Shown one piece after another: positions 750 through 16,811 of a stretch of DNA of 32,000 nt (its first letter is position 1; each line of letters starts with the position of its first letter). This DNA is from Nostoc punctiforme PCC 73102 (GTDB lineage Bacteria; Cyanobacteriota; Cyanobacteriia; Cyanobacteriales; Nostocaceae), in NCBI RefSeq assembly GCF_000020025.1, contig NC_010628.1, positions 4,830,001-4,862,000 of the forward strand. The letters run 5' to 3'. Position numbers and translations under genes: made by a program. Under the pieces are notes generated by a model. That model ran no database searches. It had not been told where the DNA came from and was given only the letters and a program-made list of their open reading frames with translations.

Positions 750-1403
750 GTGGCAAGCAACAAGATTTTAGTTATCGATGACACTACAGTTGTCAGGGTA
801 AAAGTACGAGAAATGTTGCCTCCGGGCAATTTTGAGGTACTGGAAGCAAAAGACGGTTTAGAAGGACTAAATTTTATTCTTCAGGAAAAACTCAGCCTGA
901 TTATGCTGGATTTCCTGCTGCCTAAAATGAGTGGCTGGGAAGTTTTCCAGAAAGTCCAAGCCGATCCGGAATTAAGGAAAATTCCTTTGGTGATCATGTC
1001 TGGTCGCAAGGAAGAGGTAACTGAGAAAATCACAGAACCCTTTGAATACTTTGAATTTCTGGGCAAGCCTTTCGATCAGAAGCAACTAATTAACGCAATT
1101 AAGTTAGCTATGACTAAGGCGAAACTGCCGCGCCCAGAATTAGTAGCAGTCGGAGCAGGGGTTGCTGTTAAAAATAGCACAGTTGCAACTTCTAGTGTTG
1201 CAACTGCTACGTTAGCAACTCCTACTGTTGCCAGTAGTGCGATGCCTACGGCGGCAAGCAACGCAACCCCTACTGCCGGAGGAGTCTCGGAGGCAGAAAT
1301 TAATGCGTTGAACGAGAAAATTGTCAAAATGCAGGCTGAAATCGATGGCTTGAAGAAACAGCTAACTCAAGTTGTTACCTTTATTAAACAAAAAATCAAG
1401 TAG
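750..1403 (+). CDS. Single-domain response regulator (CheY-like REC) with an Ala/Thr/Pro/Ser/Val-rich linker and a C-terminal coiled-coil; no DNA-binding domain
   Basis: GTG start. REC signature residues are present: VIDDTT (acidic pair), MLDFLLP (phospho-acceptor Asp), VIMSG, GKPF. The low-complexity region VATSSVATATLATPTVASSAMPTAASNATPTAG is followed by the heptad-like EINALNEKIVKMQAEIDGLKKQLTQV. Confidence 0.85.
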   Translation: MASNKILVIDDTTVVRVKVREMLPPGNFEVLEAKDGLEGLNFILQEKLSLIMLDFLLPKMSGWEVFQKVQADPELRKIPLVIMSGRKEEVTEKITEPFEYFEFLGKPFDQKQLINAIKLAMTKAKLPRPELVAVGAGVAVKNSTVATSSVATATLATPTVASSAMPTAASNATPTAGGVSEAEINALNEKIVKMQAEIDGLKKQLTQVVTFIKQKIK

Positions 1404-1568
1404 CATTTGTGTTCATTATTATTATCGCAGCCGAAATAACCCGTTCATCATAATGGGTGTCCGATTAAAAGCGGGTAAAAATAGTTAATTCAAAATACTT
1501 ATCTTGACAAACCATCGTTGACAGCAAAATTCAAAAATAGCAAAAAACTACATATAGGGGTAATTCAT

Positions 1569-1617
1569 GAATTGCCTCTACATGTAATTTTGTGTAAGTT
1601 TTATAGGTGCATTTTCA
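1569..1617 (+). repeat. Copy A of a ~46-nt dispersed/direct repeat (gaattgcctctacatgtaattttgtgtaagttttataggtgcattttca)
   Basis: By-eye alignment to 16833..16878 (gaattacccctacaattttgcgtaagttctataggtgcatcttca). The orientation is the same, with a handful of substitutions and one 3-nt indel. Confidence 0.7.
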
Positions 1618-1670
1618 AAAATAAATAGTATTAGTTGTTAGTCTACTGAAACAGCCCTAGACCCACTAAA

Positions 1671-1715
1671 CCTGCCGCAGTTTGCTCTTAACCTAAGAAA
1701 AACGGCAGGCTTTTT
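1671..1715 (+). terminator. Hairpin plus T-tract with no coding gene immediately upstream (rho-independent terminator-like)
   Basis: cctgccg (1671..1677) pairs with cggcagg (1703..1709) and is followed by c-ttttt (1711..1715). The loop is long (~25 nt), so the stem-loop is weaker than a textbook terminator. Confidence 0.35.
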
Positions 1716-2008
1716 ATTGCTTAGTCTCCCACATATACAATCTGCATCAGAGCTTGCTAGTAAACCTACAGATAGAAAACAGTAATAGGGAATATTTACC
1801 AGATAAATCTAGTAATAATATTTTGACAAACTTATACTTTTATACCAAATTAGTTTATTCAAAATTATATTGTTCAAGAAAATATATTTATTAAAAAATT
1901 ATTTTTATTAATAGAAATTAAACAAATAAAATTATTATTTCATGATAATGATAGCCTTCGCACGGGAATACTAAGACATAGAAACAAGAATTATGAGCAT
2001 AGGCTGCA

Positions 2009-5000
2009 ATGTTAGTAGTATTAGATACATTATATTCGTTTCCAGGCTATCACATCACCGAGCAAATATACTCAGGTAGTAAAACTCTAGTTTATCGGGG
2101 CATTAGAGAACAAGACCAAAAACCAGTCGTTCTCAAATTAATGCGGAATGAATATCCTACGTTCGCGGAAATCGCTCAGTTCCGCAATCAATATATCATC
2201 ACCAAAAACCTCGATATTCCTGGCATACTCAAAACCTATAGCTTAGAAAGCTACCGTAACAGCTACATCTTAGTGATGGAAGATTTTGGTGGTATTTCCC
2301 TGCAAGATTGGCGAATAGAGAATAAGGAAAATAAGGAAAACTATCTTTCTCTCAATGAGTTTTTCAATATTGCTATTAAAATTGCTTCTACCCTTGAGGG
2401 GCTACATCGCGATCGCATCATTCACAAAGATATCAAGCCTGCCAACATCCTAATAAACCCTACCACAGATGAAGTAAAAATCATCGACTTTAGTATTGCC
2501 ACCCTCCTACCAAGAGAAATTCAATTTCTCACGAATCCCAACATCTTAGAAGGTACTCTGGCTTACATTTCTCCAGAACAAACTGGAAGGATGAACCGGG
2601 GTATCGACTATCGCACTGATTTTTATTCCCTTGGTATTACCTTCTTTCAACTCCTCACCGGACAGTTACCCTTCACTACTAAAGATCCGATGGAGTTAGT
2701 TTACTCTCATATCGCCAAACAACCGCTAAAAGCCAGCCGCATTAATTCTAAGATTCCAGCAATTTTGTCTGAAATTATCAATAAGCTGATGGCGAAAAAC
2801 GCCGAAGACCGCTATCAGAGTGCTTTGGGGTTAAAGCATGACTTAGAGGTGTGCCAAAAGCAGTGGCAAGAAACAGGAAATATTGCACCCTTTGAAGTAG
2901 GAATGAGGGACATCTCAGACCGTTTCGTAATCCCTGAAAAACTCTATGGTCGTCAAGGTGAAGTTGAAACCCTACTCGCTGCTTTTAAGCGTGTAACTGA
3001 AGGGGCAATAGAAATGATATTAGTTGCAGGTTTCTCTGGCATTGGCAAAACTGCTGTGGTCAATGAAGTTCACAAACCTATTGTGCGACAGCGTAGTTAC
3101 TTCATCAAAGGAAAATTTGACCAGTTTCAACGTGACATTCCCTTATCAGGATTGGTGCAAGCTTTTAGAGATTTAATCGGGCAACTACTCTCAGAAACTG
3201 ATGCCCAAATTCAACAATGGAAAGCCAAAATCCTGCGGGAATTGGGTACACAGACTCAGGTAATTATCGATGTAATCCCTGAACTCGAACAAATTGTTGG
3301 TAAGCAAGCTCCGGTTACAGACCTCTCTGGCAGTGCTGCTCAAAATCGTTTCAATTTATTGTTTCAAAAATTTATTCAAATCTTTACAACTAAAGAACAT
3401 CCCCTAGTTATCTTTATTGATGACTTGCAATGGGCAGATACAGCATCTTTAAAAATAATTCAGTTACTAATGTGTGAGAGTATTTCATCTTCTTTGGCAG
3501 AAAATGCAGAACACACACATGAGAGTCAGGGAGGTTTATTGTTAATTGGTTCTTATCGAGACAATGAAGTTTTCAAAGTAGATCCGCTTTATTTAACACT
3601 ACAGGAAATTGAAAAAGCCGGAGCAGCTATTAATACAATTACCTTATCACCTTTAAATCAGGGTGATTTAAATCATCTCATTGCTGATACTCTGCATTGT
3701 GCTGAAGTAGTCGCAGTTCCGCTCACCCAGATGGTGTTTGCCAAAACCAAAGGCAACCCATTCTTTTCCGTCCAATTCCTCAAGTCTTTACACGATGATG
3801 GGCTAATTATATTAAACTTTGATGTTGGTCATTGGCAGTATGATATTTCCAAAGTTAAAGAGTTAGCTCTCACAGATGATGTAGTAGAATTTATTGCCCT
3901 ACAAATAGGAAAATTGCCAATATATACCCAAAAGGTTCTGAAACTAGCGGCTTGTATTGGTAATCAATTTGACTTAAAGAGTCTAGCGATCGTCAACGAA
4001 AAATCTGTAGTAGATACAGCCTCGGATTTGTGGCAAGCCTTACTTGATGGACTAATTTTACCACAGACTGAAAATTACAATATCTTTGCGAAAGAAAATA
4101 CTAATCAAGAATTCATTGTTCATGGAATAGAATCTATAGAATTTTCCAGTTCTAACTTACAGCTACCTAAATATAAATTCGTACACGATCGGGTGCAGCA
4201 AGCAGCTTATTCTTTGATTCCTGAAGAACAAAAAAAGCCAATTCACTTAAAAATTGGGCTACTGTTATTAAACAATATTCCAGTTGCAGAACAGGAAGAA
4301 AAGATTTTTGAGCTTGTCAATCAGTTTAATATTGCAGTGGAATTCATCTCCCCTCAAGCTAAACGAGATGAACTAGCCCAGATGAATCTAATTGCTGGAC
4401 GTAAAGCTTTAGCATCAACAGCCTATCCTACAGCCCTTAAGTATTTAACTACTGGTATCCAACTGCTGGCAGATGATAGTTGGGAGACGAAACATTATCT
4501 TACCCTGGCTTTATATGAGACTGCGACAGAAGCAGCATATTTAGCTGGCAACTTTGAACAGATGGAACAATTAGCAGAGGTAGTGTTGGTACGTAAACCA
4601 CTACTAGAAAAAGTAAAAGTTTATGAAGTCAAAATTCAGGCTTATGGGGCGCAGAACCAAGCACTGGAGGCCGTAAATACTGCCCTAACCTTTTTGAAAC
4701 TTTTGGGAGTGGAGTTTCCTGAACATCCAAGCCAGTCTGATATTCAGTTAGCAATGGCAGAATTAACGTCAAATCTCAATGAAAGACTCATTGGGGACTT
4801 AATTAATCTGCCGGAAATGATCGAAGCTCAACCTCTGGCAATAATGCGTATACTATCAACTGCAACCCCTATTACCTATGCAGTTGCTCCTAAACTTTTT
4901 CCGCTAATTGTTCTGAAACAAATCGAGTTATCGCTCAAATATGGTAATGCTCCTTTATCTGCCTTTGGCTATAGTAATTACGGGTTAATACTGAGCGGAC

Positions 5001-7624
5001 TAGTCGGAGATATTGAGTCTGGTTATCAATTTGGCAAACTATCTGGGAGTCTAGTGGATAAGCTGAATGCTAAAGATGTTAAAGCTAAAATTATGCTGGG
5101 ATTTAACACAACCATTCGGCATTGGAAAGAACATACTAGACAAGTATTAAAACCTTTAATGGAAGGTTACTATGCCGCACTAGAAATAGGAGATTTAGAA
5201 TATGCAGCTTATTATCTTCACTCTTATTCCTACTCTTCATATTTTATTGGTAAAGAACTCATAGGGTTAGAAAGGGAGATAGAAAATTACAGCAATGTTG
5301 TCAGGCAAATCAACCAAAAAACAGTATTTAACTGGATTAAAATCCACCAACAGAGTGTCTTGAATTTACTGGGAAATGCAGTGAATCCCTGTTATTTAAT
5401 GGGTGAAGCTTACAACGAGAAAAAAATGTTGCCGTTTTACATTGACACCAATGATATAATGGGTATTTTCTATTTATATGTAAGTAAACTACATCTCTGT
5501 TACCTATTTCAGGAATATCCTTTAGCCTTGGAAAATGCTACTTTAGCAGAAAAGTATTTACAAGGTGGAATAGGACAGCAAGTAACTCCTATTTTCTACT
5601 TATATGATTCACTAGCACGACTGGCTGCATACCCTGATGCATCGGATTATGAGCAAAATTTAATTCTGAATAAGGTTCAAGCAAATCAGCAAAAAATGGA
5701 GTGTTGGGCACATCATGCTCCAATGAATTATTTACATAAATATTATATTGTAGAGGCCGAAAAGTATCGGATTAGTGGTCAATATCTTGAAGCAATGGAA
5801 TTTTATGATCGCGCGATCTTCCTTACCAAAGAACATGAGTATATTCATGAAGAAGCACTCGCTCAAGAGCTTGCCGCAAAATTTTATCTCGAATGGGGTA
5901 AACATAAAATTTCCCAAACCTATCTAACAGATGCTTATTATAGCTACGTTCGCTGGGGAGCGTTAGCCAAAGTTGATGATTTGGCAAAACGCTATCCTCA
6001 ATTACTTGCTCCTATATTCCAGCAAGAAAAAGTAAGTATCAAGTCCAGCCAGGAAAGCGTTTCTTTGAATAACACATCTATATCATCTTTATCTACTCTG
6101 AGTAATCAGCAAACTGTTATTGGCTCTAAGACAAGTATTTCTGATTCTCTGGATTTAGCCGCATTCATTAAAGCATCTCAAGCGCTCTCTGGAGAAATCG
6201 AGCTTGAACGACTACTTTCTACTTTGATGGAAGTTGTTATGGAGAATGCAGGAGCCTCTAAATGCGCTTTAATTTTGAGCGAAGGTGATAACTTAGCATT
6301 AACTGTCACAGCTGTTTGTTCAAGTTCAAATTTTGAGTATACCTACACTGAATTTCCATCAACTTCCCTTGAGTCGAGCTACGATGTTCCCATTACTTTG
6401 ATTAACTACGTTAAACGCTCCAGAGAGATACTGGTAATTGATGATACAACATCTGTTTCTTTTCTAGCAAGCGATAACTACATTATTAGTGAAGAACCTA
6501 AGAGTTTGTTGTCTATACCTCTTGTAAATCAAGGTAAATTGATTGGGATTCTTTACCTAGAAAATCATCTGACAACAGGAGCCTTTACCCGCGATCGTGT
6601 AGAAGTACTTAAACTCCTCACCACTCAAGCAGCAATATCCCTAGAGAATGCTATCCTCTACAAAAATTTGGCCAAAGCTAAAGAAAGCTTGGAGGAATAT
6701 AACCATACTTTAGAAGAAAAAGTCCAGGAAAGAACGCAGGAACTCAACGATAAAAATAACTGTTTACAAGAGACTTTACAGGAACTACAGCGTACCCAAA
6801 TTCAATTGATTCAAAGTGAAAAAATGTCTTCTCTAGGACAAATGGTTGCGGGCATTGCTCATGAAATAAATAATCCTATTAACTTTATTCATGGCAATAT
6901 TAATCATGCGGGTGAGTATGTCCAAGACTTGCTTGATTTGCTAGTTGTTTATCAGCAGGAATATCCCCATTCTTCGCCTTTAGTTGAGGAGAAATATGAG
7001 GAGATTGATATAGATTTTCTATCAGAAGACTTGCCAAAGATTCTAGATTCAATGAAAGTGGGTAGTTCGCGTATCCGAAATATCGTTTTGAGCTTACGTA
7101 ATTTTTCTCGCCTAGATGAATCTGAGATGAAGCCTGTAGATATTCATGAGGGAATAGACAACAGCTTAATGATTTTACAACACCGACTTAAAGAAAATAG
7201 CAATTTTCCTGAAATTGAAGTCATCAAACAATACGGAAAATTACCGGAAGTTATTTGTTACCCCGGTCAGCTGAATCAGGTGTTTATGAATATCCTGAGT
7301 AATGCAATCGATGCTTTAGAAGATTCATTATCATCGGCTTCTGATTTTGTAGGAAAAATCCACATCTTTACTGAACTAACAGATTCTAATACGGCGATAA
7401 TTCGAATTACCGATAATGGTTTTGGGATGACAAAAGCGGTGCAGCAGAAAATATTTGACCCATTTTTTACTACCAAGGCGGTAGGAAGTGGCACAGGCTT
7501 AGGGTTGTCCATTAGCTATCAGATTATTGTGGACAAACACAAGGGTCGTTTAACCTGCGACTCTACATTAGGAAAGGGAACTGAGTTTGTGATTGAGATC
7601 CCGATGCAACAGTCAGATATCTAG
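2009..7624 (+). CDS. Multi-domain signalling protein: N-terminal Ser/Thr protein-kinase domain, AAA/STAND-type NTPase, long helical (TPR-like) region, GAF domain, coiled-coil, histidine-kinase core (DHp + HATPase)
   Basis: 1871-aa ORF. Kinase motifs: VLK (Lys), HKDIKPANIL (residues 139-148, nt ~2423), DFS, SPE. Walker A GFSGIGKT (residues 341-348, nt 3029..3052) and Walker B LVIFIDDLQWAD. GAF-like LSTLMEVVMENAGASKCALIL...LYLEN. H-box [10 protein letters not shown] (His codon 6860..6862), N-box QVFMNILSNAIDAL, G1 DNGFGM, G2 GSGTGLGLS. Confidence 0.9.
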   Translation: MLVVLDTLYSFPGYHITEQIYSGSKTLVYRGIREQDQKPVVLKLMRNEYPTFAEIAQFRNQYIITKNLDIPGILKTYSLESYRNSYILVMEDFGGISLQDWRIENKENKENYLSLNEFFNIAIKIASTLEGLHRDRIIHKDIKPANILINPTTDEVKIIDFSIATLLPREIQFLTNPNILEGTLAYISPEQTGRMNRGIDYRTDFYSLGITFFQLLTGQLPFTTKDPMELVYSHIAKQPLKASRINSKIPAILSEIINKLMAKNAEDRYQSALGLKHDLEVCQKQWQETGNIAPFEVGMRDISDRFVIPEKLYGRQGEVETLLAAFKRVTEGAIEMILVAGFSGIGKTAVVNEVHKPIVRQRSYFIKGKFDQFQRDIPLSGLVQAFRDLIGQLLSETDAQIQQWKAKILRELGTQTQVIIDVIPELEQIVGKQAPVTDLSGSAAQNRFNLLFQKFIQIFTTKEHPLVIFIDDLQWADTASLKIIQLLMCESISSSLAENAEHTHESQGGLLLIGSYRDNEVFKVDPLYLTLQEIEKAGAAINTITLSPLNQGDLNHLIADTLHCAEVVAVPLTQMVFAKTKGNPFFSVQFLKSLHDDGLIILNFDVGHWQYDISKVKELALTDDVVEFIALQIGKLPIYTQKVLKLAACIGNQFDLKSLAIVNEKSVVDTASDLWQALLDGLILPQTENYNIFAKENTNQEFIVHGIESIEFSSSNLQLPKYKFVHDRVQQAAYSLIPEEQKKPIHLKIGLLLLNNIPVAEQEEKIFELVNQFNIAVEFISPQAKRDELAQMNLIAGRKALASTAYPTALKYLTTGIQLLADDSWETKHYLTLALYETATEAAYLAGNFEQMEQLAEVVLVRKPLLEKVKVYEVKIQAYGAQNQALEAVNTALTFLKLLGVEFPEHPSQSDIQLAMAELTSNLNERLIGDLINLPEMIEAQPLAIMRILSTATPITYAVAPKLFPLIVLKQIELSLKYGNAPLSAFGYSNYGLILSGLVGDIESGYQFGKLSGSLVDKLNAKDVKAKIMLGFNTTIRHWKEHTRQVLKPLMEGYYAALEIGDLEYAAYYLHSYSYSSYFIGKELIGLEREIENYSNVVRQINQKTVFNWIKIHQQSVLNLLGNAVNPCYLMGEAYNEKKMLPFYIDTNDIMGIFYLYVSKLHLCYLFQEYPLALENATLAEKYLQGGIGQQVTPIFYLYDSLARLAAYPDASDYEQNLILNKVQANQQKMECWAHHAPMNYLHKYYIVEAEKYRISGQYLEAMEFYDRAIFLTKEHEYIHEEALAQELAAKFYLEWGKHKISQTYLTDAYYSYVRWGALAKVDDLAKRYPQLLAPIFQQEKVSIKSSQESVSLNNTSISSLSTLSNQQTVIGSKTSISDSLDLAAFIKASQALSGEIELERLLSTLMEVVMENAGASKCALILSEGDNLALTVTAVCSSSNFEYTYTEFPSTSLESSYDVPITLINYVKRSREILVIDDTTSVSFLASDNYIISEEPKSLLSIPLVNQGKLIGILYLENHLTTGAFTRDRVEVLKLLTTQAAISLENAILYKNLAKAKESLEEYNHTLEEKVQERTQELNDKNNCLQETLQELQRTQIQLIQSEKMSSLGQMVAGIAHEINNPINFIHGNINHAGEYVQDLLDLLVVYQQEYPHSSPLVEEKYEEIDIDFLSEDLPKILDSMKVGSSRIRNIVLSLRNFSRLDESEMKPVDIHEGIDNSLMILQHRLKENSNFPEIEVIKQYGKLPEVICYPGQLNQVFMNILSNAIDALEDSLSSASDFVGKIHIFTELTDSNTAIIRITDNGFGMTKAVQQKIFDPFFTTKAVGSGTGLGLSISYQIIVDKHKGRLTCDSTLGKGTEFVIEIPMQQSDI

Positions 7625-7632
7625 ACTAAGTA

Positions 7633-7723: not shown

Positions 7724-7746
7724 CATCAATTTAACTTGAAAACCAA

Positions 7747-9138
7747 CTAGGATAGGGGTGTAGTTGTCATATTAATTAAAGATTCTTTACGCGCACGTTG
7801 GTCGGTCATTACCATCTTGACTCCACTGCCTGGGGCAAGGTTAAAACCTCTACGCTGAGGTTGCTCTGGCCGCTGATCAACTAGCGCCAAGTGATAGTGT
7901 GACACAATGGTTGCTAATGCTAGCTTTATTTCAAATAGAGCCAAAGCCTCGCCCATACAACGACGGACACCACCGCCAAAGGGCAGGAATTCATAGGGAG
8001 AAAATTGACGTTCAATAAAGCGTTCTGGTTTAAATTGCTTAGATTGGGGATATAAATTCTCGCGATGATGAGTAAGATAAATACTGGGAAGCAGTATAGT
8101 TCCAGGCTCTAAAGAATGTCCCAATAATTCCAGGGGTTCTTGCACTACCCTGGGAAACGAAAACATCGTGACGGGGTGAATTCGCAAGGTTTCATTACAG
8201 ACAGCTGTAAGATATGGTAGTCGGGAAATGCTCATAGGATCTGGGGAATCACCGAGAGTATCCAGTTCTTGAAGCAGTTTTTCACAGACTAAAGGCTGTT
8301 TGTGAATCCAGTACAATCCCCAAGCCATTGCTGTTGCAGTAGTATCGTAGCCAGCAAGTATAAGGGTTATTAACTGATCGCGCAACTCCTGATCTGTCAT
8401 CGGTTGGCCTGCTTCATCCCGACATGATATTAGTAAAGAGAGAATATCGATGCGTTCTGGATCGGCTTGTTGTTGACACTCGGCAATTTCAGTGTAGAGA
8501 AATTGATCAATTTTCTCTCGAACGCGCAAGAAATTTCCCCAAGGACTCCAAGCTCCTAAATCCTGTTGCAAGAATGAGAAAAGGAATAAACTAGAACTAA
8601 GAGGTGACTCAAAAAGCTCTAACAACAATGGCAATAGTTGCCTAAGTTTTTGAATTTTTTCTCCCTCATAAAAGCCAAAGATAGACTGTAAAATGACTTG
8701 CAGAGATATCTCTTTTGTTAGATTACGAGCTACAAAGGGCTTATTTAGTGGTAACTGGTTAAAGATTTTTTTAGACACATTACAGATTAACTGACCATAA
8801 GCTTGCATCCGCTCTCCATGAAAAGAGGGTGTCACGAGTTGTCGTTGGCGTTTGTGGCGATCGCTCTCTAGCATCAGGACTGAATTATCCCCCAAAAGAG
8901 GCTTTAAAATTCCGTTGAGTTCGCCGACAGCTGTAAACTTTTTGCGATCGTTAGTTAAAATTTCCTGAATTGCTTGGGGGTGGTTCACAAAGACCACTGT
9001 ATCCCCAAACCCGACTATCTTTCCAGTAAAAATATCAGGATATTCCTGGGCTGCATTTTCCATATAGCCTATAGGGTCACTAACCCAATGAAGCTTTTGT
9101 AGTAAAGAAGGACTTTTGAGAATATTAGGTAGTTGCAT
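7747..9138 (-). CDS. Cytochrome P450 monooxygenase (cyanobacterial CYP110-like)
   Basis: 463 aa. Heme-binding loop FGGGVRRCMG (Cys codon 7957..7959), I-helix AGYDTTAT, K-helix ETLR. Confidence 0.9.
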   Translation of the reverse strand: MQLPNILKSPSLLQKLHWVSDPIGYMENAAQEYPDIFTGKIVGFGDTVVFVNHPQAIQEILTNDRKKFTAVGELNGILKPLLGDNSVLMLESDRHKRQRQLVTPSFHGERMQAYGQLICNVSKKIFNQLPLNKPFVARNLTKEISLQVILQSIFGFYEGEKIQKLRQLLPLLLELFESPLSSSLFLFSFLQQDLGAWSPWGNFLRVREKIDQFLYTEIAECQQQADPERIDILSLLISCRDEAGQPMTDQELRDQLITLILAGYDTTATAMAWGLYWIHKQPLVCEKLLQELDTLGDSPDPMSISRLPYLTAVCNETLRIHPVTMFSFPRVVQEPLELLGHSLEPGTILLPSIYLTHHRENLYPQSKQFKPERFIERQFSPYEFLPFGGGVRRCMGEALALFEIKLALATIVSHYHLALVDQRPEQPQRRGFNLAPGSGVKMVMTDQRARKESLINMTTTPLS

Positions 9139-9311
9139 CTAGTTCTTGTTTTAAATTGTAGTGAGCTAATGGTCATTTATTCTTACTACCTTAACTTGTT
9201 AAAGTAGCAGCTTAAATATTGATTACATCCAACTTGAAAGCATGTTAATTACTATTTGTTACAAGTTCACTGCTTCACTACTTTGGCTAGTCAATCTAGA
9301 GTGGAAGTTTT

Positions 9312-10283
9312 TTATTTGAACTCTGTTAGCTCTAGCCTTTCTAAATTATGATAGCGATAAGACTCGTAACACCAATCGAGATTACCACGAATCCAACTAT
9401 GCATCCCTGATATATATTTTGTAATTTCAACATCTAATTCTTCTGAAAAAAATGAAAGAGATGATTCTACTTTTATCAAAGAATGTACTTCCTCATTATG
9501 AATTTTTACCACTTGTTCTATTGCTTTTTCTAAAGAGATTTTTTTATGATAATGCAGTACAAATATTAAATTGTGAACATCACCACTAGCTATTTCTCTG
9601 GATGCTGAAAAGATATCGTTAGACCAGGCAATAATGTCAGTTGTAATTAGTTCCAGCTTTTTGACAAGGTGATGATTTCTTAAAACATCGGGAATGATGA
9701 ACTGATTACAAAACTCAGACAATGCGAGAACAGCATAAACACCTACACTTGACCTTCGTATCATAATATAAGTGTCTAGATCGGGTACAATTCCCTTTGC
9801 GCGGTTGGTTGCTTCCTGAACACACCCATAAAAGTAGTCTTCCAAGTAGCTGATGAAGTAATTGAACCATTTTATACTAGCTCTTTGGAGAGTTCGTTTT
9901 CGTAAGTCAATTAATGCATGACTGAATAGTGTATCCTGGCTTGTAAGTTCTGCACCGTTAAGTATTTCTAAATATCTTTGGTGAAAATTATTTAATACTT
10001 CAGGTTGCTTTTTTAACTCTGATAGATCGCATTGGTCATCCCAAATAAACACCCAACTCAACCAGTCATGTGTAATCTTCAATTCTTCAAACTTGCTATC
10101 AGGGTAAGCAGATGCAGCTAAGAAAAAGAATTTGGACTTGCAAAAACGCTTATAAGCTGATTCATTAGCCAGGAGGTTGAAGCGAAGTACCCATTCAAGA
10201 GAGTACTCTTCTAAAACATCGACATACTTATTAGTCTGAGATGGAAATGGACAGTACAAACCAGGGCAAAGTAATTGATTCAT
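9312..10283 (-). CDS. Class I terpene synthase, bacterial sesquiterpene-cyclase type
   Basis: 323 aa. Asp-rich motif DDQCD (nt 10026..10040) and NSE triad NDIFSASRE (nt 9594..9620) with typical spacing. The size fits single-domain bacterial sesquiterpene synthases. Confidence 0.85.
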   Translation of the reverse strand: MNQLLCPGLYCPFPSQTNKYVDVLEEYSLEWVLRFNLLANESAYKRFCKSKFFFLAASAYPDSKFEELKITHDWLSWVFIWDDQCDLSELKKQPEVLNNFHQRYLEILNGAELTSQDTLFSHALIDLRKRTLQRASIKWFNYFISYLEDYFYGCVQEATNRAKGIVPDLDTYIMIRRSSVGVYAVLALSEFCNQFIIPDVLRNHHLVKKLELITTDIIAWSNDIFSASREIASGDVHNLIFVLHYHKKISLEKAIEQVVKIHNEEVHSLIKVESSLSFFSEELDVEITKYISGMHSWIRGNLDWCYESYRYHNLERLELTEFK

Positions 10284-10411
10284 AACAATGTATTAGTTTA
10301 AAGTACCGAAAAAATGGGTTGCCCTACCAGACAGACAGTAGCTCAATACTATTCTTTAAAGAGCCTTTAAAAAACTTTTAAAAAATTTATATATTAAAAC
10401 GCACAAGTTTC

Positions 10412-10441
10412 GTTTACGCCACTACATAGTAGTGTGTAAAC
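10412..10441. promoter_or_regulatory. Imperfect 30-nt palindrome in the divergent promoter region between the terpene synthase and the REC-HK operon (candidate operator)
   Basis: gtttacgc-cactac-ata-gtagtg-tgtaaac. The core cactac/gtagtg (10420..10434) is a perfect match; the outer arms gtttac/gtaaac also match. Confidence 0.3.
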
Positions 10442-10863
10442 ACATATAAATATTTCAACAGCTATCTAGATACTTTCATTAAAAAATAAAAGTAGCCACT
10501 TCTGTGTGTCTTCATTGAGCAATATGGTTGACTAACTGAAAAAGTTAACTGATGGGTATCAACAACGTAACATTAGCACTACATTTATAAAAAGACAAGG
10601 GTAATAATGACTAATTTTAGAGCGATCGTCTTCATAAAGGAGGATTTTCAACTCTAGTGAAAGTGCAGATTTGTCGTTGATGTCCATGCTGTAGCGGTTG
10701 CATAGAGCAATTTAGCCTGAGAATGTTGCTGTTATCAGAGTTTTTGGGAACTATATGGTTGTCAGAGGATATATTTGCCAGTCAGTCTGCAAAATAAGGG
10801 TGACTTAGCTGCGATCGCAGGCAATAGTAAACAATAAATAAGGAGTTAAATTAATTTAAATAC

Positions 10864-12186
10864 ATGAATTATAAGCCATATCTACAAATGCTTAACCTCC
10901 CAGAAGATAGTTTAATTTTAGTGGTGGATGATACCACTACAAATTTAGGAATTGTCTTTGACATATTAACTAATGTTGGTTTTAAAGTTGTTACAGAAAA
11001 TGATGGCAGTAGGGCACTTAAGCAGGCTGAAGAGCAATTACCTGATTTAATTTTATTAGATGTAATGATGCCGGGAATAGATGGATTTGAAACTTGTAAA
11101 AGACTGAAAGAAAATTCAGCTACTTATGATATTCCAGTAATTTTTATGACAGCTAACTCTGATACTAATAGTAAAGTTAGGGGTCTAAATATAGGGGCGG
11201 TTGATTATATTACTAAACCTTTTAATGAAGAAGAGTTACTAGCTAGAATTAAAACCCATCTACAATTACGAAATCTTACAAAAACTTTAGAGAAACGAGT
11301 TGCAGAAAGGACAGCAGCGTTGTCTAAGGCATTAAAAGACCTACAAGAGTCTCAACTTCAGCTTGTGCAGACAGAAAAAATGTCTGCTCTTGGCCAATTA
11401 GTAGCAGGAGTTGCTCATGAAATTAATAATCCAGTTAGTTTCATTCATGGAAATCTCGGACATGCTTCAGTATATTTTCAAGACATAGCTAATATTATTA
11501 ATCTCTATCAGCAGTACTATCCAAATCCGGTACCAGAAATTCAAGAGGAAATTGCAGGGATAGATTTGAAGTATATGCTTTCCGATTTACCTAACTTAAT
11601 TTCTTCAATGAAAGAGGGTGTTCAGCGCATTCGTAATATTAGTACTAGTCTGAGAACTTTTTCTCGTGCAGATAGCGATCGCAAAGTTTCTTGCAACATT
11701 CATGATGGCATCGACAGTACAATCATGATTCTCAAACACCGTTTAAAAGCATCCGAGAATCGACCTGATATTCAAATAATTAGAGATTATGAGAATTTAC
11801 CAGATTTAGAATGCTTTATCGGACAGCTTAATCAGGTATTTATGAATTTATTAGCTAATGCTATTGATTCTTTAGAGGAGTCTAATATAGGACGAACTTA
11901 TATTGAAATTGAAGCAAATCCTAATCAAATTTTTATTCAGACTACTCTCAATGAAAACAATAATTATATTCTAATTCGGATTAAAGATAATGGGGTGGGA
12001 ATGTCGGCTGATGTCCAGCAAAAAATCTTCGACTATTTATTTACCACTAAGCCTGTTGGTCAAGGTACAGGATTAGGATTATCAATTGCTCATCAAATTG
12101 TTGTCGAAAAACATGGAGGAACTCTGGAGGTAAATTCAGAACTTGAACACGGTTCAGAATTTATCATTAAACTCCCTATTTACTAA
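10864..12186 (+). CDS. Hybrid protein: N-terminal receiver (REC) domain fused to a histidine-kinase core
   Basis: 440 aa. REC motifs VVDDTT, LLDVMMPGIDG, FMTA, TKPF. A coiled coil precedes the H-box AGVAHEINNP (His codon 11416..11418), N-box QVFMNLLANAIDSL, DNGVGM, GQGTGLGLS. Confidence 0.9.
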   Translation: MNYKPYLQMLNLPEDSLILVVDDTTTNLGIVFDILTNVGFKVVTENDGSRALKQAEEQLPDLILLDVMMPGIDGFETCKRLKENSATYDIPVIFMTANSDTNSKVRGLNIGAVDYITKPFNEEELLARIKTHLQLRNLTKTLEKRVAERTAALSKALKDLQESQLQLVQTEKMSALGQLVAGVAHEINNPVSFIHGNLGHASVYFQDIANIINLYQQYYPNPVPEIQEEIAGIDLKYMLSDLPNLISSMKEGVQRIRNISTSLRTFSRADSDRKVSCNIHDGIDSTIMILKHRLKASENRPDIQIIRDYENLPDLECFIGQLNQVFMNLLANAIDSLEESNIGRTYIEIEANPNQIFIQTTLNENNNYILIRIKDNGVGMSADVQQKIFDYLFTTKPVGQGTGLGLSIAHQIVVEKHGGTLEVNSELEHGSEFIIKLPIY

Positions 12187-12215
12187 TTATACTAAGTAAC
12201 TTTATCGGAATCTTT

Positions 12216-13367
12216 ATGTTTAAAACAGCAGTAGGCCACAGTAACGATCCAGATTCTCTGTCAGCAATTGAAGAAGTTCTTCAGCAATGTGTCAGTTCCC
12301 TTGGAGGAGATATACCAAAAGCTGGGATTCTTTTTTCTGCAATTGACTTTGAACATGCTCTCATTTTGCAGCAAATTCATCAGTTTTTTCCGGGAATTGA
12401 GTTAATTGGTGGAACAACTGATGGAGAAATTTCTTCAGTTTTAGAATTTCAGCAAGACTCAATCACCTTAATGTTATTTTGCTCAGATGAAGTTGAAATT
12501 AATGCAGGAGTTGGACGTAAGGTTTCAGTCGATCCAATTGCTGTAACTAAACAAGCTGTAGAGCAAGCCAAAGCAAAAACTACTGAAACTCCAAGGCTAT
12601 GTTTAACTCATCCAGAGAGTCTTACAATTAGTGGTGTATCTATATTGCATGGCTTAAAATTAGCTCTTGGTCAAAATGTGCCGATATTCGGCGGTTTAGC
12701 AGGCGATCAGTCCAGATATCAAAATACATATCAATTTTTTCAAACAGAAGTATTAAGTGATTCTGTACCAATTCTACTTTTTTCAGGCACAATATTGTTT
12801 TCTCATGGTGTTGCAAGTGGTTGGCATCCTATCGGTCAAATAAGCCAAGTGACTAAGGTAGATAAGAACATACTCTATGAAATAGATGGTAAACCAGCTT
12901 TAGATTTTTATCATCATTATCTAGGTTTACTTCCTCCTTCAATGGAATATCCTCTAGCAGTATTTGATCAGAATAGAGACAATTTTTATATAAGAGCGCC
13001 GATTGCTTACAATCAGGATTCTGGTAGCATCACCTTTTTTGCAGATATTCCCGATCGAGCTGTAATTCAAATTGCGGAAGCATGTTATGAAGATATTTTG
13101 GCAGCTTCTAAAGCATCATTTATGAATGCCTTAAATAATTATCCAGGTGCAGAGCCAAGTGCTGTTTTATTTTTTTCATGTGTAGCTCGTCGGCAAATAC
13201 TTGGTACGAGAGCAAAAGAAGAGTACCAGAATACGAAACTCTGTTTGACTTACCATTTACCTGGTTGTGGGTTTTATTCTTATGGAGAAATTGCTCCTAT
13301 AGATGGAATGAGCCAGACACAATTCCACAATGAAACTTTTGTAACTTTAATTTTGGGAACTCGGTAG
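12216..13367 (+). CDS. Stand-alone FIST-domain (FIST_N + FIST_C) sensory protein
   Basis: 383 aa. The N-terminus, size and motif pattern (GILFSAIDFEH..., GGTTDGEIS, FGGLAGD, GWHPIG, FFSCVARR, FYSYGEI) match my recollection of FIST proteins; this has not been checked with an HMM. The gene starts 29 nt after the preceding gene. Confidence 0.65.
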   Translation: MFKTAVGHSNDPDSLSAIEEVLQQCVSSLGGDIPKAGILFSAIDFEHALILQQIHQFFPGIELIGGTTDGEISSVLEFQQDSITLMLFCSDEVEINAGVGRKVSVDPIAVTKQAVEQAKAKTTETPRLCLTHPESLTISGVSILHGLKLALGQNVPIFGGLAGDQSRYQNTYQFFQTEVLSDSVPILLFSGTILFSHGVASGWHPIGQISQVTKVDKNILYEIDGKPALDFYHHYLGLLPPSMEYPLAVFDQNRDNFYIRAPIAYNQDSGSITFFADIPDRAVIQIAEACYEDILAASKASFMNALNNYPGAEPSAVLFFSCVARRQILGTRAKEEYQNTKLCLTYHLPGCGFYSYGEIAPIDGMSQTQFHNETFVTLILGTR

Positions 13368-13373
13368 AATTTT

Positions 13374-14420
13374 ATGGAATTTTTGGATTACCAACAAGAA
13401 AATAAGGAACTAAAGAAAGCGAATAGAATTCTTCAAAAGCAATTAGAGCGTTCTGAGGTAGACCGGGTAAAACTAGAAGAGACAAATGAGAAAAAAGAAT
13501 ATTTGCTCAGAAAAGTAATTGCTGAATTAAAGGAATATCAAAACAATCTAGAAGAAAGAAGCCAAGAACTAGAAATGATGCTTCTTAATCTTCAGATAAT
13601 GCAGAATAAGATGTCTAGTTTGGGAAGTTTGGTTGCAGATGTAGCTCATGAAATTAACAATCCAGTTGGCTTTATAGTAGGTAATCTGACTCCAGCTCAA
13701 GAGTATATTCAGAATTTGTTACATTTGATCGACCTATATCAAAAAACCTATCCTCAAGCATCTCAAGAAATTCAAGAAATCATCAAAGTAATGGATCTAG
13801 AGTATGTGCGTGAGGATTTACCTAAACTAATTTCATCAATGAGAGAAGGCACTAATCGCATTTCTAATATTAGTAGTAGCTTGCGAACTTTTTCCAGAAC
13901 AGATACAGAACAAAAAGTTATGTTTAACCTTCATGAATGTATTGACAACACTCTTTTTATTCTCAAGTATCGGTTGAAAGATAATAAGATTCGTCCTGCT
14001 ATTCAAGTAGTTAAAAATTATGACGGTGAGATTCCTCCTATACCATGCTTTCCAGGACAATTGAGTCAGGTATTTATGAATTTGTTGGCAAATGCAATTG
14101 ATGCTTTAGATGAGTCGAATTCGGGATTGAGTTTTGATGAAATTAAGGAAAGTCACAATCAAATTATAATTCATACTGCTCGAAACAAAGATGAGAATCA
14201 CGCATTGATTAAGATTCAAGATAATGGTGTAGGAATATCGCCTGATGTTCAGCAAAAAATGTTTAGTCATTTATTCACAACAAAACCTGTGGGAAAAGGA
14301 ACAGGATTAGGATTATCAATCGCTTATCAAATAATTGTTCAAAAACATAGGGGAACTCTAGAGGTAAAATCTGTGCTAGGAAAAGGTTCTGAGTTTATCA
14401 CTAGAATTCCCATCTCTTAA
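13374..14420 (+). CDS. Soluble histidine kinase with only an N-terminal coiled-coil (no recognisable sensor or TM segment)
   Basis: 348 aa, starting 6 nt after the FIST stop. H-box ADVAHEINNP (His codon 13647..13649), N-box [30 protein letters not shown]. Confidence 0.9.
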   Translation: MEFLDYQQENKELKKANRILQKQLERSEVDRVKLEETNEKKEYLLRKVIAELKEYQNNLEERSQELEMMLLNLQIMQNKMSSLGSLVADVAHEINNPVGFIVGNLTPAQEYIQNLLHLIDLYQKTYPQASQEIQEIIKVMDLEYVREDLPKLISSMREGTNRISNISSSLRTFSRTDTEQKVMFNLHECIDNTLFILKYRLKDNKIRPAIQVVKNYDGEIPPIPCFPGQLSQVFMNLLANAIDALDESNSGLSFDEIKESHNQIIIHTARNKDENHALIKIQDNGVGISPDVQQKMFSHLFTTKPVGKGTGLGLSIAYQIIVQKHRGTLEVKSVLGKGSEFITRIPIS

Positions 14421-14798
14421 AATAGTAAATCTATCAATTCTTGAAATTAAGATTATTTAAAATTAATTTTTAATATAGAATCAGGCGATTGAAACGAATA
14501 ATTTGTGGTTCATAATGGGTAATTAACTACGCTTTCAGAGCAGTAAAATTCATTTATTTAAAATAGAAAAATTTGATCCTGTTTGTAAATAAGCTGGTTT
14601 ATTTGCAAAGTGAGAATTGGTTTGAAGCTAGAAGAGACTTTGCAAAACCGAGAACTGTCGCAACGACAAGATTTAGAAATTGCGATCGCTATCACAATTT
14701 ATTAGAAACACAAGCAAGCACCAACTTCTTTAAAGAAAGGTATCAACCAGTTACTTTATGGTCATTTTGGGGAACTCTATAACTGTAGTTCCAAGATT

Positions 14799-15356
14799 GT
14801 GTTCTCAAAATTTATGACTAATGCACTTAATCATTCGATAGCCACGCTTAATGTTTCTTTAGAACGCGATATATTTTTACGTACATTAATTAGAGAATTA
14901 TCTGGCACTTTGCAGGATGTAGTTGGCTTAGAAGAAGCTTCTGGATTTATTAGTGTAGTTGGTGAAAGGATGGCTACGCAGCTTGATCAAGATTACAAAT
15001 CTGCTCTGGAAGTCTCCAAACTTTCCCGTAAGCAGGTCGCTGATGTCTTGATTGATTTAAAAAAACGAATCCAGGGCGATTTTTATGTTGTTGAGCAGGA
15101 TGATGAAAAAATTGTCTTTGGCAACCGCGTCTGCCCATTTGGGGAAAAAGTGCTTAATCGCCCTGCCATGTGTATGATGACTTCAAACGTCTTTGGGACG
15201 ATCGCAGCTAATAATCTGGGATATGCGAAAGTAGAATTGCAACAGACAATAGCACAGGGTGCTTCGGGATGTAGAGTTATTGTTTACTTAAAATTTACAG
15301 AAGAGGCAGAAGATGCAGAAGGTCGAGAATACTTTAGGGGACTAGAATCTGTGTAA
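14799..15356 (+). CDS. Small soluble three-cysteine protein, V4R / methanogen-output-domain-1-like (putative ligand or redox/metal sensor module)
   Basis: 185 aa. C-terminal pattern RVCPFGEKV...[44 protein letters not shown] resembles V4R-type folds; the family assignment is from memory only. GTG start at 14799; an alternative ATG lies at 14814. Confidence 0.45.
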
Positions 15357-15395
15357 ACTCTTCCTCACTAAAATAACCATAGGATACAAGCTTGA

Positions 15396-16811
15396 GTGCA
15401 GATATGTAAATTAGAATCGAACCCTGAAATTGGAAGCCCCATGACTCCCGAACAATTTCTTGAATTTGCCAGAGTTTTACCAGAACCTTTGCTCCTGGTG
15501 AGTGGAGAGGGTCAGTTGCTAGCGACCAATCAACCAGTAGCAGATATGCTGGGGTTACGCCGTCAGGAACTGCGGGGAAAGATGCTCTTTGAACTTGTAA
15601 CTCAGTCTACTGACGATGTTGTAAAGTACCTGCAAGCTTGTTCAAGTAGTAGAGCAATGGTTATTGGCTCCTTGACTTTACGAAAGAATGATGGACAAAC
15701 CTTAATATGTCGTAGTCAAGGAGCCGTTATTCAACCTTGGTCTCCTGAATCTTCAAGTTTAATTCTCTTACGTTTAGAAAATAGAACTTTAGCTAGCAGT
15801 AATTTTGTTCTCCTAAACCAGAAAATCGATGAGTTAGCAAAAGAAGTTCAGAGACGTAAACAAGCGGAGGAAGCGCTGTGGAAAGCTAATCAAGAGTTAG
15901 AAATTCGGGTTGAGGAACGTACAACTGCTTTACAAGAAACACTAAACGAACTACAACTTACCCAAACTCAACTTATCCAAGCTGAGAAAATGTCTAGTTT
16001 AGGTCAGATGGTTGCTGGTATTGCTCATGAAATAAATAACCCCGTCAGTTTTATTTATGGAAACCTCCACCACGCCTATAAATACACTCATGATTTACTG
16101 AAATTGGTGCAAATCTATCAACAACTTTGTCCCAATACTCCTCTAGAAATCCAACAGGAGCTAGAAGAAATAGACTTAGATTTTCTGATTCAAGATATAA
16201 CTAAACTCTTCCAGTCAATGACAGTAGGAACAGAGCGAATTCAGGAAATTGTTAAATCACTACGTAACTTTTCCAGACTGGATGAAGCAGAGCTTAAACA
16301 AGTCAATATACATGAAGGAATTGATAGTGCTTTAATGATTTTGGAGCATCGACTGCAAGCTAGGCATGAGTACCCAGAAATCAAAGTGATCAAAAAATAT
16401 AGTCAGCTACCTAATGTAACTTGCTATCCTGGTCAACTTAACCAAGTGTTTATGAATATTCTTGCTAATGCGATCGATGCACTGGAAGCGCTGGCGGTCA
16501 ATTCGCAAACAACTGACAATCAAAAGCTGACAAATAATAATCCCCAAATTCAAATCAAAACTGAGGTAATCAATGAAAAATGGATTGCGGTTAGTATTGC
16601 TGATAATGGTTTGGGAATAGATGAACAAGTTCGCTCAAAGGTATTCGATCCATTTTTCACTACCAAAACCGTGGGTAAAGGCACAGGAATAGGGCTATCT
16701 GTAAGCTATCAAATTATAGTTGAAAAACATGGCGGACAACTGAGCTGTTTTTCGGTTCCAGGAAAAGGTGCAGAATTTGTGATCAAGATACCTGTTAACT
16801 CAGTCTCATAA
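15396..16811 (+). CDS. PAS-like sensor histidine kinase
   Basis: The ORF starts at GTG 15396, but ATG 15441 (MTPEQFLEF...) is the more likely start. An N-terminal PAS-like ~120 aa and a coiled coil precede the H-box [10 protein letters not shown] (His codon 16026..16028), N-box [29 protein letters not shown]. Confidence 0.88.

Follow-up and report, generated by a model that had tools for sequence, protein, structure and literature searches.

A terpene synthase cassette co-varies with the TPR-type arm of a neighbouring dual kinase in Nostoc punctiforme and its relatives: a candidate signal-synthase/receptor pair

The stretch of DNA analysed here, hereafter the window, comprises 32,000 nucleotides of Nostoc punctiforme PCC 73102 (contig NC_010628.1, positions 4,830,001 to 4,862,000) and carries a class I terpene synthase (TS) gene and a cytochrome P450 gene surrounded by genes for seven signalling proteins. 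One of the seven, a 1871-residue fusion of Ser/Thr kinase, NTPase, GAF and histidine kinase (HK) domains here called GIANT, is the site of the main finding. A variable segment (V) of its TPR-type alpha-solenoid arm falls into classes that match those of the terpene synthase nearly one to one among related cyanobacteria, whereas the remainder of the kinase follows species background.

The locus

The proteins of the locus correspond by exact sequence match to ACC82214-82218, and the features of the window are listed in Table 1. Housekeeping genes enclose the block, with lipA on the left and ndhB, followed by more of them, on the right. lipA is also the housekeeping edge of a conserved lipA-RECo-GIANT frame, and L088-L094 have a Radical_SAM gene at that position (L numbers designate loci of the comparison set). 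The intervals are 173 bp between P450 and TS, 122 bp between P450 and the 3' end of GIANT, and 580 bp between TS and REC-HK. All seven signalling proteins are predicted to be soluble.

An earlier, sequence-only reading of this DNA had proposed nine genes with their domains, with GIANT convergent on the P450 gene and REC-HK divergent from TS, and had remarked that none of the signalling proteins carries an output domain. Pfam and NCBIfam place all nine genes and their domains where that reading had put them, the orientations are right, and neither database reveals an HTH, GGDEF or other classical output domain in the signalling proteins. Pfam likewise found no HTH or GGDEF domain in any open reading frame (ORF) of the window, so that a classical two-component regulator with such an output was not encountered. 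No Rfam families or tRNAs were found in the window, and a scan for promoters and terminators returned counts no higher than chance.

Table 1. Features of the window, with coordinates counted from its first nucleotide
Feature	Position	Strand	Basis or remark
lipA (lipoyl synthase), 5' part	1..420	-	radical-SAM CxxxCxxC in open frame; gene continues past left end of window
RECo, REC plus ~95-aa tail	750-1403	+	Pfam REC, 61.5 bits
GIANT, 1871 aa: Pkinase, AAA_16, GAF, HisKA/HATPase	2009-7624	+	Pfam
V segment of GIANT, aa ~841-1320, variable part of TPR-type alpha-solenoid	4529..5968	+	structural model and class matching
GAF-HK part of GIANT	6149..7624	+	follows species background
Cytochrome P450, downstream of TS	7747-9138	-	Pfam p450, 250 bits; exact match to ACC82215
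Class I terpene synthase (TS, NP1)	9312-10283	-	Terpene_syn_C_2 (PF19086), 171 bits; identical to B2J4A4/ACC82216
TS-proximal half of TS/REC-HK intergenic region	10284..10560	.	diverges along with TS class
REC-HK	10864-12186	+	Pfam
FIST protein, FIST_N and FIST_C	12216-13367	+	PF08495, 156 bits; PF10442, 107 bits
HK3, histidine kinase without sensor domain	13374-14420	+	Pfam
MetOD1 protein, 185 aa	14799-15356	+	PF18546, 80 bits (cut-off 23.8)
PAS-HK	15396-16811	+	Pfam

GIANT consists of a Ser/Thr kinase domain (residues 14-285; Pkinase, 131 bits), an AAA_16 NTPase (311-488; 138 bits), a helical/TPR arm (about 760-1343), a GAF domain (1398-1546; 64 bits) and a HisKA/HATPase unit (1609-1867; HisKA 31 bits, HATPase_c 81 bits), with additional weak nSTAND6 and NACHT matches. 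The Walker A (GFSGIGKT) and Walker B (LVIFIDD) motifs are intact, as are the catalytic motifs, and no transmembrane segment is predicted in the protein. An AlphaFold model of residues 760-1400 (39 homologues; pLDDT 85.8, pTM 0.81) is all-alpha with about 30 helices, and the solenoid ends in a disordered linker ahead of the GAF domain. Foldseek matches the modelled arm to TPR solenoids at E values of 3e-5 to 1e-3, the closest including LGN, Tom70, TTC7B and subunits of APC/C. Because this TPR-type solenoid sits downstream of an intact AAA_16 module, GIANT is arranged like a STAND NTPase that has a repeat sensor arm: Walker A and B motifs mark the P-loop NTPase, and the model shows a C-terminal superhelical repeat arm. 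The arm segment matches 16,369 cluster representatives (50% identity) at E <= 0.001, and is a regular component of this very large family rather than an insertion specific to this locus.

With its N-terminal Ser/Thr kinase, GAF domain and C-terminal HisKA/HATPase in one polypeptide, GIANT belongs by definition to the cbSTKIII or 'dual protein kinase' (HstK) family of filamentous cyanobacteria. That family is defined by domain content, the functions of most members are unknown, and all4687 of Anabaena PCC 7120 is among those listed (PMC2176072). RECo combines a receiver domain with the canonical residues D10, D11, D54 and K106, an Ala/Thr/Pro-rich low-complexity linker (about residues 125-180) and a conserved C-terminal amphipathic helix (181-217). 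Its tail has weak matches of coiled-coil type only. RECo is probably the phospho-acceptor of GIANT.

The terpene synthase is reportedly the enzyme that Agger et al. characterised as NP1 in 2008 (J Bacteriol). Its DDxxD motif (WDDQCD, residues 81-86) and NSE motif (NDIFSASRE, residues 222-230) are invariant in the alignment of TS homologues, and the presence of both in a Terpene_syn_C_2 protein is the mark of a bacterial class I sesquiterpene synthase. The product of NP1 has been reported as 5-epi/8a-epi-alpha-selinene (PMC7821278, PMC4390852), and the literature ascribes germacrene A to one member of this TS family and an epi-alpha-selinene to another (PMC4390852). The cluster has a published history as well. 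A minicluster of TS, P450 and 'hybrid two-component protein' in Nostoc and Fischerella was already described, reportedly by Agger et al. in 2008 and again by Micallef et al. 2015 (PMC4558948), together with variants in which a flavin oxidoreductase replaces the P450 or TS and kinase stand alone (PMC4558948), and both variants recur in the present set (L071 and L020, respectively). The link between a terpene synthase and a two-component gene in Nostoc, which the sequence-only reading had mentioned, is therefore on record, and neither the cassette nor its linkage to one kinase gene is new.

Matched classes of terpene synthase and kinase arm

Identity to the TS of the window has a bimodal distribution, at either 80-88% or 55-64%, among Nostoc loci whose flanking genes are at 80-99%. 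In the closest relative, L064, REC-HK is 98% identical to its counterpart in the window, PAS-HK 99% and ndhB 99%, and TS is 57% identical. The TS cassette has been exchanged within a conserved frame. The residues that distinguish one TS class from another lie almost entirely (26/28) within residues 101-240, between the DDxxD and NSE motifs.

The class pattern extends into the kinase. Distances were compared over 45 Nostoc-type loci, with species background estimated from NdhB and REC-HK. The Ser/Thr kinase, NTPase, GAF and histidine kinase parts of GIANT track that background, whereas the middle of the protein tracks P450 and TS. Measured by the adjusted Rand index (ARI), TS class agrees with GIANT residues 781-1140 at 0.95 and with residues 1141-1380 at 0.92, against 0.18 for the N-terminal and 0.22 for the C-terminal part of GIANT, and these two parts agree with each other at 0.81. 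For the 37 unique haplotype combinations the ARI of TS and V is 0.986, with a maximum of 0.18 in 10,000 permutations; the corresponding values are 0.09 for TS and backbone, 0.02 for TS and REC-HK, and 0.43 for TS and P450. Alternative TS/V combinations, two or more per backbone, are found on at least ten backbones, and TS classes that occur on more than one backbone keep a single V class, with L031 as the only exception.

A scan in bins of 60 residues over RECo, GIANT, P450, REC-HK and NdhB delimits the segment. The ratio of distances between and within TS classes reaches 2.3-3.3 in GIANT residues 841-1320 only; it is 1.7-2.0 in P450 and 1.0-1.4 in RECo, REC-HK, NdhB and the rest of GIANT (1.2-1.4 in GAF-HK). 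The GAF-HK bins correlate with species distance at 0.40-0.76. In a regression on distance matrices, the V segment gives a beta of 0.23 for TS and 0.63 for P450 (both p=0.001) and 0.01 for species (not significant), and the N-terminal part of GIANT, GAF and HK give a species beta of 0.66-0.81 (0.66-0.69 for GAF-HK). P450 is thus the strongest predictor of V distance in the regression, and plain distance correlations likewise have the arm following P450 more closely than TS, whereas the discrete V classes match TS near one-to-one. Both results are reported as they stand, and which of the two enzymes matters more for the arm is not claimed here.

The same rule holds outside Nostoc. Calothrix PCC 7507 is 86% identical to PCC 7716 in V, 74% in backbone and 75% in TS, and compared with Goleter it is 63% identical in V, 85% in backbone and 54.5% in TS; the matching of V and TS therefore recurs beyond the genus in which it was defined. 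Metagenomic loci agree in a small out-of-sample test (20 loci, 8 of which duplicate the genome set), with the nearest V neighbour and the nearest TS neighbour coinciding in locus or class in 4/4 informative cases, and the nearest backbone neighbour differing in 3/4.

Two divergent islands at silent sites

Comparison with the near-isogenic Nostoc sp. LEGE 12447 locates the divergence on the DNA. Identity is about 95-98% in the flanking genes, falls to 72-79% over nucleotides ~4709-5908 within GIANT, returns to 91-97% through GAF-HK, is 87-92% over the body of the P450 gene, and falls again to 56-81% over TS and the adjoining intergenic DNA. In bins of 150 nucleotides running from the TS side to the REC-HK side, the region between these two genes is 59, 64, 80, 95 and 100% identical to that of L064, the half nearest REC-HK being conserved.

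Third codon positions were compared for 15 pairs of loci with different TS classes on similar backbones and for 11 pairs of the same class, mostly on divergent backbones. In the different-class pairs, third-position identity is 0.64 for V, 0.67 for P450 and 0.64 for TS, against 0.91 for RECo, 0.88 for the N-terminal part of GIANT, 0.87 for GAF-HK, 0.91 for REC-HK and 0.91 for ndhB. In the same-class pairs, V (0.83), P450 (0.81) and TS (0.82) are slightly above the N-terminal part of GIANT (0.79), GAF-HK (0.78) and REC-HK (0.79), and level with ndhB (0.85). Thus two non-contiguous segments share a history unlike that of the 1.5 kb between them.

An exchangeable slot at the kinase 3' end

The gene context of selected GIANT matches was inspected in other genera, the best 120 matches all being at least 68% identical. 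The sampled orthologues share the lipA-RECo-GIANT frame, with a variable slot at the 3' end of the kinase gene. In Goleter and Nostoc the slot holds P450 and TS, in Trichormus (L071) TS and a flavin oxidase, and in Fischerella muscicola TS alone. Elsewhere the contents are unrelated to terpenoids: two flavin monooxygenases (FMOs) and a 237-residue protein in Nodularia (L090 11689-15586), a Trp halogenase, an FMO and a protein of about 240 residues in Dendronalium and Aulosira, an esterase, IDO, a flavoenzyme and a 238-residue protein in Tolypothrix tenuis, and a 238-residue protein alone in Cylindrospermum NIES-4074. RECo is present in all of the 7 lipA-frame loci sampled through GIANT, six of which have no TS.

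The proteins of about 240 residues are homologous to one another, at 40-75% identity, and the Nodularia member matches AetD in the PDB at E = 4e-49. AetD is a diiron nitrile synthase that acts on halogenated tryptophan in the biosynthesis of aetokthonotoxin. The product of the AetD-like cassettes accordingly looks, by homology, like a tryptophan derivative, possibly halogenated or a nitrile. Because the same frame pairs with either a sesquiterpenoid or a tryptophan-modifying cassette, a kinase that reads its neighbour's product is an easier explanation than the alternatives considered below.

Several further observations concern these cassettes. Those of AetD type also lie at L089 11741-12457, L091 11636-16285, L092 11744-16308 and L093 11825-15921. 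The flavoenzymes of Nodularia were considered as AetF-like halogenases and rejected, as they give generic matches to FMOs and Baeyer-Villiger monooxygenases only. In the first of two Halotia copies, a gene for a FAD_binding_3 monooxygenase (L087 4645-5934) lies immediately upstream of GIANT, besides P450 and TS downstream, which hints at further tailoring variation around the kinase.

Which genes travel with the cassette

The genes that accompany the cassette were surveyed in 80 loci from different species, fetched through the TS homologue alignment, onto which each window protein was mapped. Flanks are complete in 70 loci on the P450 side and in 74 on the REC-HK side. GIANT adjoins TS in 67/70 loci, convergent and at constant spacing, including loci of Calothrix, Scytonema, Fischerella, Tolypothrix and Dulcicalothrix, and RECo comes next after GIANT in 53/70.

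The REC-HK side is far less constant. All five remaining signalling genes are found in 28 of the 74 loci, 16 lack FIST/HK3, 3 lack MetOD1/PAS-HK, 4 have REC-HK alone and 21 have none of the five. The FIST gene occurs in 31/74 loci, always with HK3, and its presence varies within one TS class; MetOD1 never occurs without PAS-HK in these TS loci. Since neither sensor gene is found without its kinase, FIST/HK3 and MetOD1/PAS-HK are two-gene modules. In Calothrix and Dulcicalothrix RNA-repair genes (Pnkp/Hen1, Thg1) border the trio of TS, P450 and GIANT on either side, and further signalling genes are missing from the vicinity.

The sequence-only reading had combined all seven signalling proteins into one network around the terpenoid, to be given up if synteny proved not to be conserved, and had proposed co-occurrence of the FIST/HK and V4R-like/PAS-HK pairs with TS as a check. 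The survey finds synteny non-conserved for 5/7 genes: FIST/HK3 accompanies TS in only 31/74 loci, MetOD1/PAS-HK is conserved where TS is missing, and both pairs are independent of the cassette. That reading had also suggested that the product made next door is the ligand. As far as comparison of genes can tell, the suggestion is partly supported, in that the neighbouring kinase GIANT co-varies with TS and P450; the FIST and V4R-like sensors, to which it had been applied, do not.

Individual loci show further arrangements. Nostoc sp. CCCryo 231-06 (L046 10001-12695) carries a natural deletion in which TS is followed directly by RECo, GIANT and P450 being gone, and in Nostoc sp. CHAB 5836 (L014 11028-11288) the P450 gene is reduced to its last ~87 codons, adjoining an intact GIANT. 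Some genomes carry two loci: Nostoc sp. ChiSLP01 has two TS-GIANT pairs (L026, L065), DedSLP01 has two TS loci with GIANT at L066 only (L028, L066), and Halotia branconii has one GIANT with TS/P450 and one in a lipA-RECo frame without a cassette (L087, L088). Coexisting copies in one genome would fit orthogonal channels.

A signal-synthase/receptor pair and its rivals

Taken together, these sequence comparisons of related genomes give an even chance that the cassette and the TPR arm of GIANT form a signal-synthase/receptor pair with specificity groups, with three or four independently evolving signalling modules in the 16-kb region lying beside the cassette rather than making up one terpenoid network. 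The functional unit would be RECo, GIANT and the cassette, next to lipA, with the TPR arm as the specificity determinant matched to whatever cassette lies at the 3' end of the kinase gene. A lipophilic terpenoid, from the same cell or from neighbouring filaments, would bind the arm; binding would release the NTPase module, as in other STAND proteins, and so switch the Ser/Thr and histidine kinase outputs. The histidine kinase would then phosphorylate RECo, which may act through protein contacts rather than by binding DNA. That the arm recognises the product of the cassette is suggested because 26 of the 28 class-diagnostic TS residues belong to the catalytic core and members of the family differ in product. 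A membrane-permeant ligand fits because all of the signalling proteins are soluble, and the system behaves like pherotype groups because near-identical Nostoc backgrounds carry alternative matched classes of TS and TPR arm. As in such groups, the cassette adjoins the kinase gene (67/70), and the variable receptor part co-varies with it while the kinase core stays conserved; the combination of a secreted peptide with a membrane kinase is not found here, GIANT being without a transmembrane segment and its neighbours being TS and P450, with no peptide precursor.

A number of observations weigh against a synthase/receptor pair. Co-variation points to shared history or shared selection and does not in itself say what is recognised, and with about 8 well-sampled classes among related sequences the number of independent events is modest. 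The matching of TS and V is imperfect at L031 and for L023 versus L025. Between genera, V segments are all about 60-65% identical and are not sorted by type of cassette (AetD-AetD 0.63, AetD-TS 0.61, TS-TS 0.64). Coupling is not obligate: GIANT is missing at four TS loci (L003, L018, L028, L046), and the slot of the second Halotia copy holds no obvious cassette. TPR arms bind peptides and proteins more often than small hydrophobic molecules. Finally, no output of the GIANT/RECo pathway was identified, RECo consisting only of REC, linker and a short helix.

The preference of TPR arms for protein ligands leads to one rival account, in which the arm binds the TS and/or P450 protein rather than the product, and GIANT serves as a scaffold or kinase to control the enzymes after translation, for example by Ser/Thr phosphorylation, across a co-evolving interface. 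The closest structural matches of the arm are indeed protein- and peptide-binding solenoids (LGN, Tom70, TTC7B, APC/C subunits), the arm co-varies with both enzymes, and the Ser/Thr kinase domain of GIANT is apparently active; yet the class-diagnostic TS residues lie in the catalytic core (residues 101-240) and not at the termini, where TPR epitopes usually are, the C-terminal bin of TS varies even within one class, and the occurrence of the same frame beside unrelated enzymes (AetD-like, Trp halogenase, IDO) is more easily explained by a ligand sensor than by a shared interface. This account is considered unlikely. An absence of any functional coupling is judged decidedly unlikely: V and TS/P450 would simply be the most divergent stretches of one old haplotype block, within which short recombination patches homogenise the GAF-HK part in between. 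The islands are only about 3 kb apart, the HK bins nearest P450 are partly linked (beta_P450 0.22), classes are few, and at silent sites between the window and L064 the whole of GIANT is at 0.88-0.89 against 0.94-0.97 for REC-HK, PAS-HK and ndhB, as expected around old linked polymorphisms. Such linkage is difficult to reconcile with many class switches on the same backbone, at least ten backbones having two or more classes. Conserved anchors flank each island, so that swaps of V only or TS only should be at least as easy, yet mismatches are near-absent (ARI 0.99); some P450 classes are shared between TS classes, showing that partial exchanges do happen, and REC-HK, at 580 bp from TS, is nonetheless unassociated with it (ARI 0.02).

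Two further accounts concern the wider setting. GIANT might be a STAND-type conflict or immunity sensor whose arm has been diversified by phages or competitors, the terpenoid being an effector or allelochemical under its control. Conflict systems of multicellular bacteria commonly include STAND NTPases with variable repeat arms (PMC7159879), and the arm is 2-3 times more divergent than the rest of GIANT. An external arms race, however, would not predict a near one-to-one match between the arm and the adjacent enzyme; Pfam found no typical effector (nuclease, TIR, protease), the outputs being kinases, and within a class the arm diverges at the pace of the backbone (r 0.75) and is thus not hypermutating, so that a conflict sensor seems very improbable. 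Least probable of all, and only barely credible, is the single terpenoid network of seven proteins, in which the FIST and MetOD1/V4R-like proteins would bind the terpenoid or the network would gate its synthesis. It can draw on the adjacency of the genes in N. punctiforme and in 28/74 related loci, on the capacity of the V4R/Bet3/H-NOX fold to bind hydrophobic ligands, and on kinase cores that are close paralogues with a near-invariant DHp helix, which makes cross-talk conceivable. Against this, MetOD1/PAS-HK is conserved at 74-78% in cyanobacteria without TS at the locus, FIST/HK3 is missing from 43/74 TS loci and varies within one TS class, none of these genes varies with TS class (ratio 1.0-1.4 for REC-HK, RECo and NdhB), and in Calothrix and Dulcicalothrix nothing but RNA-repair genes flanks the cassette and GIANT. 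Synteny largely refutes the network model, and dense signalling genes around a biosynthetic gene need not be one network, an over-reading that is corrected here.

If the synthase/receptor pair is extended to all of the slot contents, filamentous cyanobacteria would use strain-specific lipophilic private signals. A STAND-type dual kinase would sense them in the cytoplasm through its exchangeable TPR arm and relay them to a single-domain regulator. The signals would be sesquiterpenoids in Nostoc, Calothrix and Fischerella, and tryptophan-derived compounds, possibly halogenated nitriles, in Nodularia, Aulosira, Dendronalium and Tolypothrix. Such a pherotype or kin-recognition system would be of a new chemical and architectural type, and bacterial sesquiterpenes would gain a physiological role. 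This extension is offered tentatively, as a generalisation that is open to considerable doubt.

Relation to known systems

The TS, P450 and kinase minicluster of Nostoc and Fischerella is the same locus, and the open-access papers on it note co-location only (PMC4558948). No statement that a kinase segment co-varies with TS, or that the kinase frame hosts cassettes other than terpene ones, was found in the open-access literature. The matched specificity classes of TS/P450 and TPR arm, and the exchangeable cassette slot, therefore appear to be new.

The closest parallels in genetic organisation are the agr (AgrB/D/C) and comQXP systems of Firmicutes, in which hypervariability spans the signal genes together with the sensor region of the kinase, the kinase core being conserved. 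There, as here, the signal-producing gene adjoins a histidine kinase, and discrete specificity classes are distributed across strain backgrounds. Unlike here, agr and comQXP use peptide signals that membrane kinases detect extracellularly; the present system would have a candidate sesquiterpenoid, a soluble kinase with STAND NTPase and TPR arm, and non-contiguous islands. RRNPP systems (Rap/NprR/PlcR/PrgX) resemble it in having a cytoplasmic TPR-type sensor encoded beside the signal gene and specificity groups, but their ligands are imported peptides and they act as transcription factors or phosphatases rather than being NTPase-kinase fusions, and the likeness is one of description only.

MalT-type STAND NTPases present the same order of NTPase (Walker A/B), helical region and alpha-solenoid arm as GIANT, and the arm region of MalT binds a small-molecule inducer. 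GIANT differs in that its STAND module is fused between a Ser/Thr kinase and a GAF-histidine kinase and that it has no DNA-binding output, and ligand binding by its arm is a proposal. Members of the cbSTKIII/HstK family share with GIANT the N-terminal Ser/Thr kinase, GAF and C-terminal histidine kinase (PMC2176072); specificity for a ligand or partner in the interval between NTPase and GAF, not known to have been proposed for the family before, is proposed here for GIANT.

If the proposed pair is confirmed, several consequences would follow. A terpenoid, cytoplasmically sensed channel would be added to bacterial cell-cell signalling, and one member of the very large, uncharacterised cbSTKIII/HstK family would gain a function. 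The locus would also suggest strain discrimination in organisms that live in mixed populations such as symbioses and crusts. To our knowledge, the role of sesquiterpenes for the bacteria and cyanobacteria that produce them is largely unknown and no receptor has been identified for any of them. The class-matched kinase arm is thus a concrete candidate for a sesquiterpene receptor, in the genetically tractable N. punctiforme ATCC 29133.

Neighbouring sensor and kinase modules

The remaining signalling genes tell a different story. REC-HK is, by its distribution, part of a separate ancestral block running from REC-HK to ndhB and is uncoupled from TS class; in Cylindrospermum stagnale the whole REC-HK-MetOD1-PAS-HK-ndhB block is present without TS, P450 or GIANT. 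The four histidine kinase cores of the window (6629-7624, 11269-12186, 13374-14420 and 15816-16811) are paralogues at 47-57% identity, so part of the density of signalling genes probably stems from local duplication. The DHp helix around the phospho-acceptor His is near-invariant across the four (MSSLGQxVAGxAHEINNPxxFIxGN), and this likeness suggests that they may have shared or cross-talking response-regulator partners.

The sequence-only reading had called the MetOD1 protein V4R-like with three cysteines, and this holds. Across 24 cyanobacterial homologues C112, C125 and C158 never vary, and an AlphaFold model (pLDDT 80) is matched by Foldseek to Bet3 (E 6e-5, TM 0.55-0.57), to the V4R phenol sensors PoxR/MopR/DmpR (E 1e-3 and above) and to H-NOX (E 2e-3); a sequence search against the PDB gave no match. 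Of the 7313 homologues of the protein, those of Arthrospira, Spirulina, Stanieria and Rivularia are 74-78% identical to it. Its gene lies directly upstream of PAS-HK, without TS in the flanks, in Spirulina subsalsa, Stanieria and Cylindrospermum stagnale. That the protein is so well conserved among cyanobacteria speaks for a universal ligand rather than a strain-specific terpenoid. The ORF opens at GTG 14799, and all homologues begin five codons later (MTNALNHS); the true start is probably ATG 14814, which accounts for the lack of an exact database match to the 185-residue sequence. In Stanieria (L083 7001-9192) the PAS-HK partner of MetOD1 has an extra C-terminal REC domain, making it a hybrid kinase, and the two genes overlap by 4 bp.

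The FIST and HK3 genes are separated by 6 bp, and the adjoining of a FIST_N and FIST_C protein to a histidine kinase is an architecture like that of NosP/NahK. The FIST protein scores 87.3 bits against the NCBIfam NosP equivalog NF041558, far below its cut-off of 450, and is thus not identified as NosP. FIST remnants persist as pseudogenes in L008, L032, L047, L048, L051, L059 and L060, pointing to repeated loss. FIST/HK3 is an independent, dispensable sensor/kinase pair.

Both pairs resemble NosP/NahK and H-NOX/HnoK in that the gene of a soluble sensor lies directly upstream of that of a soluble kinase with no sensor domain or PAS only. The likeness of MetOD1 to H-NOX is at the level of the fold, and its three cysteines look less like a haem site than like the zinc site of V4R phenol sensors; the FIST protein shares with NosP its two domains and the adjacent kinase. 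The two pairs are filed in neither the NosP/NahK nor the H-NOX/HnoK family, and they would be separate modules of stand-alone sensor and kinase that sense something else than the cassette product.

Two minor features of the window complete the description. G+C content is 0.34-0.36 over TS, REC-HK, FIST and HK3 (9000-15000), and the housekeeping genes from 17 kb on are at 0.41-0.45. An ORF of 89 residues at 16850-17119 matches no family. Only the closest relative (L064) has it at full length, the L058 locus has a partial match in another place, and it is probably not a conserved gene.

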